A stretch of DNA of 64,000 nucleotides, from NCBI GenBank assembly GCA_000165345.1, contig CM000429.1, forward strand, positions 320,001 through 384,000, given 5' to 3'. A program made the translations under genes and the position numbers. Of the stretch, positions 18,229 to 20,032 are shown one piece after another (position 1 is the first letter of the stretch; each line of letters opens with the position of its first letter). The notes below the pieces were generated by a model. That model was given only the letters and a program-made list of their open reading frames with translations, had not been told where the DNA came from and made no database searches.

Positions 18229-20032
18229 TTAATTCCACTCGCTATCTGAGATTTCTCCCATTTTCTTATTCTTCACAGACTTCCTCTGGTTCGTAATATT
18301 TTTATTCTCGCGTGATCTCTTGCTTTGTTTAATATGATCAGAAGAATCGGAAATCTCCCCCTCACTGAATGAGTCAGAGAAACCTTCAGACATTATTGAG
18401 TCAATTTGACTAATGCCAAACTCATCTTTGCAAATTCTATTATTTTCCTTAATTTTTTGCAGAACATCGCTTATTTCCAGATTTTTATTGTTTTTGTAAA
18501 ATGAATTCGATTTTGAGATAGCATTGAGAATGCAATTTTCAATGGAGTGGTTATCAAACTTGTTGACAAACAAGTCTATTGCCTTATTCAAATCATTGAT
18601 ATTAATCACTTCTAATCCGTTTAATTTTTCGGTATAATGAATTGTTAAGCTTTCAATCATGTTGCTATCATCAGAACTAAATGAAATTGGGTTAATTCTC
18701 GAATTAAGACCAATTGGATCTTCTTGATCATTGTATTTATTTACATTGTTTCTACTACGTCTACTAAACATCAAAATCTCATGTGGATTTGCTGTTTTAC
18801 TAACAAACTGAAACCCAAACCTTTTCGAATTGATCAGCTGTGAGTCACATTCATATTCAACTCTAAGCCTAATAATTGGTAGATCCATTGACTTATTCTT
18901 TAGAATTTCTTGTATTTCAGGATTCTGAGGCAAATTTAACTTATTTTTTTCCAACTGTACAATTTTTGCCTGTTCAATTAGTTGATGAACTTTTTCAATT
19001 AAATGTTGTTCAACCTGAGCTAAATCTTTGTCTAAAACAATATTATCATGGATAAAAACCCTTGGTGAGAGTAAAGGTATGGGAGTTGTTTTAAATGTAT
19101 TATTTTTTATTTCCAATAGTGTAACATGCTTTTGTAAACTTTCAGATGCAATAAGAGATGTAGCAATTGAAGATCCTGGCTGAAGTACAAAGAAGTTTTT
19201 ATTTGCAACCTCTACAGGGTTAACAATGCATTCATGTTCGTGACCCCAAATTATTAAATCAAGAAAATCTGGTAAAAATGATTCTGGAATAGAATCTTTT
19301 GATAGGGTTCCCCCAAAATTGCCTTTTTTTCTATTTTGATGGAAAAGCAAAATAGAAAACCATTCAGAGTCACCATTAGTATTTTCAGGAATCAAAAATT
19401 TAACTTTATTCTTTTCAAATGACCTATGAAGTCTTTCATCTCTAATATTTCCAATTCCATATATTGCCAACCTTGTACTTCCTTTCTCAAGCAAAACTGG
19501 AAAAACTTCTATGTTATCTACATTGTTATTCTTTCCTATATAGTTGATAAACCTCGCTGACTCAAGTATATCTAGCGGAGAAAGAAGCCCTTCTTCTCCA
19601 GGATCGTCATGATTTCCATGTATTCCGAAGAATGGAATGGATACGTTAGCATCACCAACTTCCCAATTGTACCCATTAACATTTGATGAATCTTGTCGAT
19701 TTAGAGCTCTGAATTTAATTTGTTTATTCCCCATACAGTACTCACGAATAATGTTCATTACCTTATACATTATATATTTAGAAGGTTTAGCAACGTCAAA
19801 TAAGTCCCCACTATGTAGAATAAGGTCTACATCAAGTTTTTTACCAATAATAAAAATTTCCTCCAACGTAATTAATGAGTCATTACTCCTTATTCTATTA
19901 AATTAATTTACTAAACTATCGAATTGATCACAAGTCAGTTCAAACATACCTATCTCTTTCTTTATATCCCGTATGTGTGTCTGTACATACAAGAATTTTA
20001 AATGTATTATCATCGTCCCCAGTTACTTCCAT
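18229..20032 (-). CDS. MRE11: Mre11 double-strand-break repair nuclease (2 exons)
   Basis: Exon 2 (18229..19894) carries Mre11 phosphoesterase motifs GDLFDVAKPS and GIHGNHDDP, plus the GHEHE motif. The track ORF lacked motif I. A 5' exon at 19950..20032 reads [27 protein letters not shown], which is the D-x-H motif I (compare yeast IRILITTDNHVGY). It is joined by a 55-nt intron (19895..19949; AG|GTATGT...TTTAATAG|A, phase 2) to [33 protein letters not shown]. This matches yeast RGNDSFNTF...VDMVVQSGDLFH. Confidence 0.8.
19895..19949 (-). other. Spliceosomal intron of Mre11 (55 nt, GTATGT donor)
   Basis: The joined reading restores Mre11 motif I and the RGNDSF-like segment. Other candidate acceptors hit stops immediately. 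Confidence 0.7.

Follow-up and report, generated by a model that had tools for sequence, protein, structure and literature searches.

The Mre11 locus of Cryptosporidium parvum, at 18229..20032 on the minus strand of a 64,000-nucleotide stretch of DNA (GenBank assembly GCA_000165345.1, contig CM000429.1, positions 320,001 to 384,000 of the forward strand; hereafter the window), can be read with high confidence as an ordinary two-exon gene with a common E2F-type promoter element upstream. A short 5′ exon encoding the D-x-H motif (phosphoesterase motif I) is predicted to be joined to the second exon by a 55-nt intron at 19949/19895. This structure is supported by homology, by the position of the intron in seven species, by the pattern of substitutions and by an identical deposited protein. 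All coordinates given here are those of the window. The predicted gene contains the following features:

20032..19950, minus strand: Mre11 coding exon 1, 83 nt, consisting of 27 codons and the first 2 nt (AG) of codon 28
19981..19973, minus strand: motif I (D18-T-H20), within exon 1
19949..19895, minus strand: spliceosomal intron of 55 nt, GTATGT...TTTAATAG, phase 2, splitting codon 28 (AG/A, Arg)
19894..18229, minus strand: Mre11 coding exon 2 including the stop codon (TAA at 18229), encoding motifs II-V and the Mre11_DNA_bind domain
19889..19890, minus strand: alternative acceptor AG (AATAAG/G), 6 nt 3′ of the main acceptor and used in rival public models of 580 aa

The start codon is the ATG at 20032 and the donor reads AG/GTATGT, with the donor G at 19949 and the last G of the intron at 19895. 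Removal of the intron restores a single frame and yields a coding sequence of 1749 nt encoding 582 aa without internal stops; the unspliced reading from the same ATG meets a stop after 30 codons. An initial annotation of this DNA, made from the sequence alone, had proposed both the minus-strand exon of 27 codons ending in AG/GTATGT and its in-frame connection through a 55-nt intron, and both were reproduced. An in-frame TGA is located at 20041..20039, three codons 5′ of the ATG. The ATG at 20032 is therefore the first possible start, and an in-frame start further upstream was ruled out. Two other introns using inner AG dinucleotides were also rejected: an intron of 34 nt keeps the frame but leads to a TAA after four codons, and an intron of 39 nt loses the frame. 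Just 5′ of the Mre11 start, two upstream ATGs are present on the minus strand. One opens an upstream open reading frame of three codons (20046..20035, ATG AAT GAA TAA) and the other opens one of 10 codons (20042..20010), which is out of frame and overlaps the Mre11 ATG. Both would be relevant only with a transcription start upstream of 20046.

The mechanically called open reading frame (ORF) at this locus starts with a TTG at 19866 and is 545 aa long. It lacks motif I, as initially noted, but it does not start within motif II as had also been stated: the TTG lies 19 residues before GDLFD, and motif II is whole. The first ATG of this ORF corresponds to M70, which is 3′ of motif II and is the start of an old 513-aa model.

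Homology searches indicated that the match of the predicted exon 1 to Mre11 is far beyond chance. The Pfam profiles Metallophos (PF00149) and Mre11_DNA_bind (PF04152), which had been suggested as a check of the spliced product, are both matched over their full length by the 582-aa protein, with 64.3 bits (cut-off 21.5; profile positions 1-191 of 191) and 104.9 bits (cut-off 25; positions 1-178 of 178), respectively. Without exon 1 the Metallophos match shrinks to profile positions 25-191 and 45.6 bits, and the Mre11_DNA_bind match is complete with or without it. To compare the gene models, a hidden Markov model (HMM) trained only on Mre11 N-termini from outside Cryptosporidium was used. It scored 152.9 bits for the 582-aa model, 102.9 bits for the 545-aa ORF and 58.4 bits for the 513-aa model, and the exon had initially been proposed to match the N-terminus of fungal and animal Mre11. 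The best match among solved structures is human MRE11 (E = 3e-98), followed by Chaetomium Mre11 and S. pombe Rad32. The alignment with human MRE11 has no gaps from query residue 6 (human residue 8) onwards across motifs I and II, and exon 1 is aligned with human residues 8-30. This match to solved MRE11 structures settles the fold. Human MRE11 (PDB 3T1I, 8BAH, and 9ULO), Chaetomium thermophilum Mre11 (4YKE) and S. pombe Rad32 (4FBW) share the Metallophos and capping/DNA-binding domains with the C. parvum protein, as well as all seven metal ligands and a spacing of 40 residues between motifs I and II (E = 3e-98 to 2e-86). Identity to most Mre11 homologues from outside Cryptosporidium is 36-41%. 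At 582 aa, C. parvum Mre11 is shorter than its human (about 700 aa) and yeast (about 690 aa) counterparts, and its C-terminal tail is short and rich in Ser and Lys.

The active site is complete only in the spliced product. The metal ligands of human MRE11 (structure 3T1I) are D20, H22, D60, N128, H217, H245, and H247. These residues are aligned with D18, H20, D58, N122, H213, H246, and H248 of the C. parvum protein, so that all seven di-metal ligands are present in the 582-aa model, D18 and H20 only if exon 1 is included. Among 117 Mre11 sequences, D18, H20, G57, D58, N122, H213, H246, and H248 are invariant. The distance between the Asp of motif I and the Asp of motif II is 40 residues in all 109 homologues from outside Cryptosporidium and also in the 582-aa model. 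It can soundly be expected that Mre11 without exon 1 would be catalytically dead, because it would lack two of its seven metal ligands.

The C. parvum locus was compared with its orthologues in C. ubiquitum, C. canis, C. felis, C. bovis, C. serpentis, and C. meleagridis. All six are syntenic with it, and at each of them exactly one GT...AG pair yields the deposited protein. The intron is found in the same codon and in phase 2 in all seven species, with lengths of 55, 53, 50, 48, 78, 97, and 49 nt (C. parvum 55, C. meleagridis 49). It begins with GTATGT in six species and with GTACGT in C. felis, ends with TAG in all seven, and contains in-frame stops in every one of them. Identity to C. parvum is 47-80% for the intron versus 71-95% for exon 1. 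In the 21 complete codons at the end of exon 1, the variable columns among the seven species are distributed over codon positions 1, 2, and 3 as 5, 7, and 18. Changes in exon 1 are thus mostly at third positions, which indicates purifying selection on the protein.

The spliced 582-aa product is identical to two deposited C. parvum proteins, QOY43485.1 (CPATCC_000276, strain IOWA-ATCC) and WRK30535.1. As all 582 residues are the same, the start, donor and acceptor of these models also agree with ours, and there is no difference at the protein level. This identity assigns the window to C. parvum or to a strain that is almost identical to it. The best database matches of the 582-aa product are all Cryptosporidium Mre11 proteins. 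Two-exon models have been deposited for C. tyzzeri, C. hominis, C. meleagridis, C. ubiquitum, C. canis, C. felis, C. bovis, and C. serpentis, and the structure was verified on genomic DNA for six of these eight species. Exon 1 of Mre11 is therefore already known. The initial description of the exon as hidden is correct with respect to the raw ORF track and the 2004 annotation, but not with respect to the current annotations that contain it. Public models of this gene fall into the following groups:

582- and 583-aa models: C. parvum, C. tyzzeri, C. hominis, and C. meleagridis, with a 55-nt intron (49 nt in C. meleagridis)
580-aa models: KAL5370382.1, WKS76042.1, CUV04085.1, and KAL3129844.1, in which the intron ends 6 nt later, at AATAAG/G
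513-aa models: the 2004-era Iowa II and TU502 entries EAZ51331.1/XP_001388154.1 and XP_667579.1, which start at M70 and have no exon 1

Three incompatible public models of one gene (582, 580, and 513 aa) thus coexist, in addition to 545-aa products in Logan, which are ORF-caller output with the TTG start. The RefSeq proteins XP_001388154.1 and XP_667579.1 lack both motif I and motif II. Mre11 is not mentioned in the supplement of the 2015 re-annotation (PMC4637869), and a search of the literature on Cryptosporidium and Mre11 returned gene-inventory papers, none of which deals with the structure of the gene.

The 513-aa entries correspond to a reading without any splicing, in which translation would start at M70 or near the TTG at 19866, Mre11 would be reduced to a truncated scaffold without nuclease activity and the Mre11-like stretch upstream would be no more than a relic. 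Apart from the annotation of the two RefSeq proteins without exon 1, the evidence points the other way, and we consider this reading extremely improbable. Throughout the genus, purifying selection clearly acts on the protein sequence of exon 1, and a relic would not retain the D-x-H motif, an intact GT...AG pair, the right phase and the 40-residue spacing in seven species. Moreover, the original annotation, in which 4.3% of genes had introns, is documented as having overlooked some 450 introns (451 were added by the 2015 re-annotation; PMC4637869). In the IOWA-ATCC (CPATCC) re-annotation of 2022 more than 500 N-termini were repaired and introns were stated to be 100% supported by RNA sequencing (RNA-seq) data (Baptista et al., 2022; PMC8744675). 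We infer, with indirect backing from this published support of the CPATCC introns, that the Mre11 intron is spliced. In a rival reading, which the four deposited 580-aa models follow, exon 1 and the donor are the same and AATAAG/G is the true or major acceptor. In these models exon 2 starts at 19888, the intron is 61 nt long, Ile29-Arg30 is absent and the junction reads ...KERDRSNDS.... The acceptor of the 61-nt intron is in frame and has an AG, and an AAG at +6 is present in seven of seven Cryptosporidium species, but this AAG is accounted for by the Ile-Arg codons ATA AGR themselves. The 61-nt intron would reduce the spacing between motifs I and II to 38 residues, against 40 in 109 of 109 other eukaryotic Mre11 proteins, and would remove R30, which is at least 90% conserved. 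Its HMM score is 141.9 bits, 11 bits below the 152.9 bits of the 582-aa model. The proximal acceptor is a TAG in all seven species, and in 3′ splice-site choice a TAG is usually favoured over a distal AAG. The 55-nt intron is also the one chosen in the CPATCC and BGF annotations, which were curated manually. The 61-nt intron is accordingly rated as unlikely, and the 55-nt junction (19949/19895, TAG/A) is quite probably the correct one; it is preferred because it gives the invariant 40-residue spacing. Use of both tandem acceptors (the TAG and the AAG at +6, present in seven species), which would produce an active 582-aa isoform and a 580-aa isoform with a shortened spacing between motifs I and II, is highly unlikely. 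If true, dual acceptor use could let splicing tune the nuclease activity of Mre11, for example in asexual versus meiotic stages, and the conflicting public annotations of 582 and 580 aa would both mirror real isoforms.

For the two-exon gene with the 55-nt intron, the following sequence of events is proposed. Transcription would start somewhere in a 259-bp promoter region shared with a divergent neighbouring gene. The 83-nt exon 1 would supply the first beta-strand and motif I, with D18 and H20 as two of the seven Mn2+ ligands. Removal of the 55-nt GT-AG phase-2 intron would join exon 1 to the exon that encodes motifs II-V and the capping domain. The product would be a 582-aa Mre11 with a complete active site, acting as the nuclease subunit of the Mre11-Rad50 complex for double-strand-break repair.

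The initial annotation had also placed an E2F-like site at 20099..20112, about 65 bp upstream of the Mre11 ATG. The sequence at this position on the plus strand, ATTTTGGGCGCCAA, was found 67 bp from the ATG and contains the following element:

20112..20105, minus strand: E2F-like box TTGGCGCC, 73-80 bp upstream of the Mre11 ATG; it also lies upstream of the neighbouring gene, about 180-187 bp from the ATG at 20292

On the strand of the gene the surrounding sequence reads GTTGGCGCCCAAAAT. Within it, GTTGGCGCCC (20113..20104, minus strand) is an exact match to motif 3 of C. parvum, DTTGSCGCCH, and differs from the animal E2F consensus TTTSSCGC by one mismatch (G for the first T). Motif 3 (core [C/G]GCGC[G/C]) is the most over-represented upstream motif genome-wide in C. 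parvum and is over-represented upstream of 114 expression clusters that include every temporal class (Oberstaller et al., 2013; PMC3734150). The Mre11 box agrees with the description of this motif in that the consensus is matched exactly, it is intergenic, the distance to a start codon is no more than about 100 bp, and a G-rich box adjoins it. The core GGCGCC is conserved in the orthologous promoters of five of the seven species (C. parvum, C. meleagridis, C. ubiquitum, C. canis, and C. bovis). In C. felis the core is replaced by GCCGCC, and C. serpentis has GCGCC/GGCGCT nearby. Identity of the intergenic sequence flanking the box goes down to 48-68% across species. In the four species that are closest to C. 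parvum, the box precedes the Mre11 ATG by 63-78 bp.

Related sites are frequent in the window, where GGCGCC occurs seven times (0.79 expected) and TTGGCGCS six times (0.35 expected). ORFs of at least 150 aa cover all but 17% of the window, and 11 of the 15 distinct [C/G]GCGC[G/C] sites lie in this uncovered part, a distribution for which a binomial estimate gives about 2e-6. Most of these non-ORF sites are found between divergent gene pairs, a small-scale echo of the reported genome-wide enrichment in promoters. The five exact matches to motif 3 in the window all fall between genes, and their distances to a start codon are 72-312 bp. Copies in the window are found upstream of a protein kinase gene, a gene for a 3010-aa protein, a gene for an E2F-domain protein and several genes without a Pfam match. 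The E2F-domain gene is the ORF at 51642..52829 on the minus strand, 32 kb from Mre11, which encodes 395 aa with a Pfam E2F_TDP winged-helix domain (E = 1.1e-16). A GGCGCC core is present at 52950..52955, 121 bp upstream of its own ATG. In the literature, two E2F and two DP genes are listed for C. parvum (PMC3734150).

Taken as a sequence element, TTGGCGCC is very probably a functional E2F/DP-type promoter element, which would be bound by an E2F/DP factor. There is about an even chance that the box mainly serves the divergent neighbour, or that it is an element of a generic nucleosome-free or bidirectional type, to which a factor other than E2F/DP may bind. It sits in the 259 bp between the two divergent start codons, and the other exact matches in the window front other genes, including the protein kinase gene. 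On the other hand, its distance to the ATG of Mre11 is the shorter one (about 75 bp, versus about 185 bp to that of the neighbour), and its position relative to Mre11 is kept in the four species mentioned above. Genes for DNA replication and repair are, in addition, classic E2F targets in animals and plants. The majority of regulatory peaks in C. parvum ATAC-seq data are annotated as bidirectional promoters, with E2F as the dominant motif, which favours the neighbour or a generic element, as does the association of motif 3 with all time profiles of expression. The element is most likely a general, possibly bidirectional, promoter element and not a switch specific for DNA repair. The suggestion that E2F control at this site would reflect the role of Mre11 in DNA repair therefore did not hold: a specific association of the motif with replication and repair genes was not found among the copies in the window, and because the motif is ubiquitous, is present in every expression class and is shared with the divergent neighbour, the Mre11 box says nothing specific on the control of repair genes.

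Some observations weigh against the two-exon gene with an E2F-type element. The exact 3′ splice site of Mre11 is disputed between public annotation sets, which contain both 580- and 582-aa models. The E2F-like motif reads 5′-TTGGCGCC-3′ on one strand only, and its other half, TTTGGGCGCC, is not a canonical TTTSSCGC. A scan of JGI metagenome contigs for either spliced junction (AAAGAAAGAGATAG N{0,6} GAGTAATGACTCATTAATTACG) gave no matches, as could be expected of a collection in which transcripts from Cryptosporidium are unlikely to occur. A search of a protein collection with the N-terminal 118 aa for cDNA fragments spanning the junction returned one candidate and no usable matches, and was uninformative.

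Besides the E2F-like box, the 259-bp region between the start codons of Mre11 and its divergent neighbour contains other conserved elements. These and the neighbouring gene are listed below:

20091..20095, minus strand: G-run CTGGGGGCT, five G, 9 nt downstream of the E2F-like box; resembles the G-box (G.GGGG) but is no strict match
20124..20136, minus strand: conserved intergenic block ATGCAAAGGTCAT, with TGCAT on the plus strand
20292..21640, plus strand: divergent neighbour of Mre11, with exon 1 at 20292..20618, an intron at 20619..20668 (50 nt, GTAAGT...CCCTTAG) and exon 2 from 20669

A run of four or five G is kept 8-11 nt after the E2F-like box in six species, and a G-box motif has been described for C. 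parvum (PMC3734150). The ATGCAAAGGTCAT block shows no differences among C. parvum, C. meleagridis, and C. ubiquitum and is retained in part in C. canis; TGCAT has been reported as an ApiAP2 motif (PMC3734150). The ATGCAAAGGTCAT block, the E2F-like box and the G-run stand in a fixed order and resemble three of the four most over-represented upstream motifs of C. parvum. A further block of 12 nt, TTATTTTTAGAT (20170..20182, minus strand), is present in all six aligned species including C. bovis. Its conservation thus exceeds that of the E2F-like box, and it may serve either Mre11 or the divergent neighbour as a core-promoter element. The two-exon reading of the neighbour gives 432 aa versus 443-445 aa annotated for its orthologues, and this gene may have a further small 3′ exon. 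A Pfam search gave no match for the divergent gene (20292) or for a 247-aa gene at 16989..17732.

The analysis adds no new biology, since both the 5′ exons missed in the 2004 annotation and the ubiquitous E2F-like motifs had been documented already. Its added value is curatorial only and its practical worth is small: the invariant 40-residue spacing is an objective ground for choosing the 582-aa model rather than the 580-aa model. The 513-aa RefSeq proteins of C. parvum Iowa II and C. hominis TU502 and the 545-aa ORF-caller products are confirmed as truncated. Inventories of repair and meiosis genes, or surveys of catalytic residues, that are based on these truncated models would record, incorrectly, that Cryptosporidium Mre11 has no motif I.

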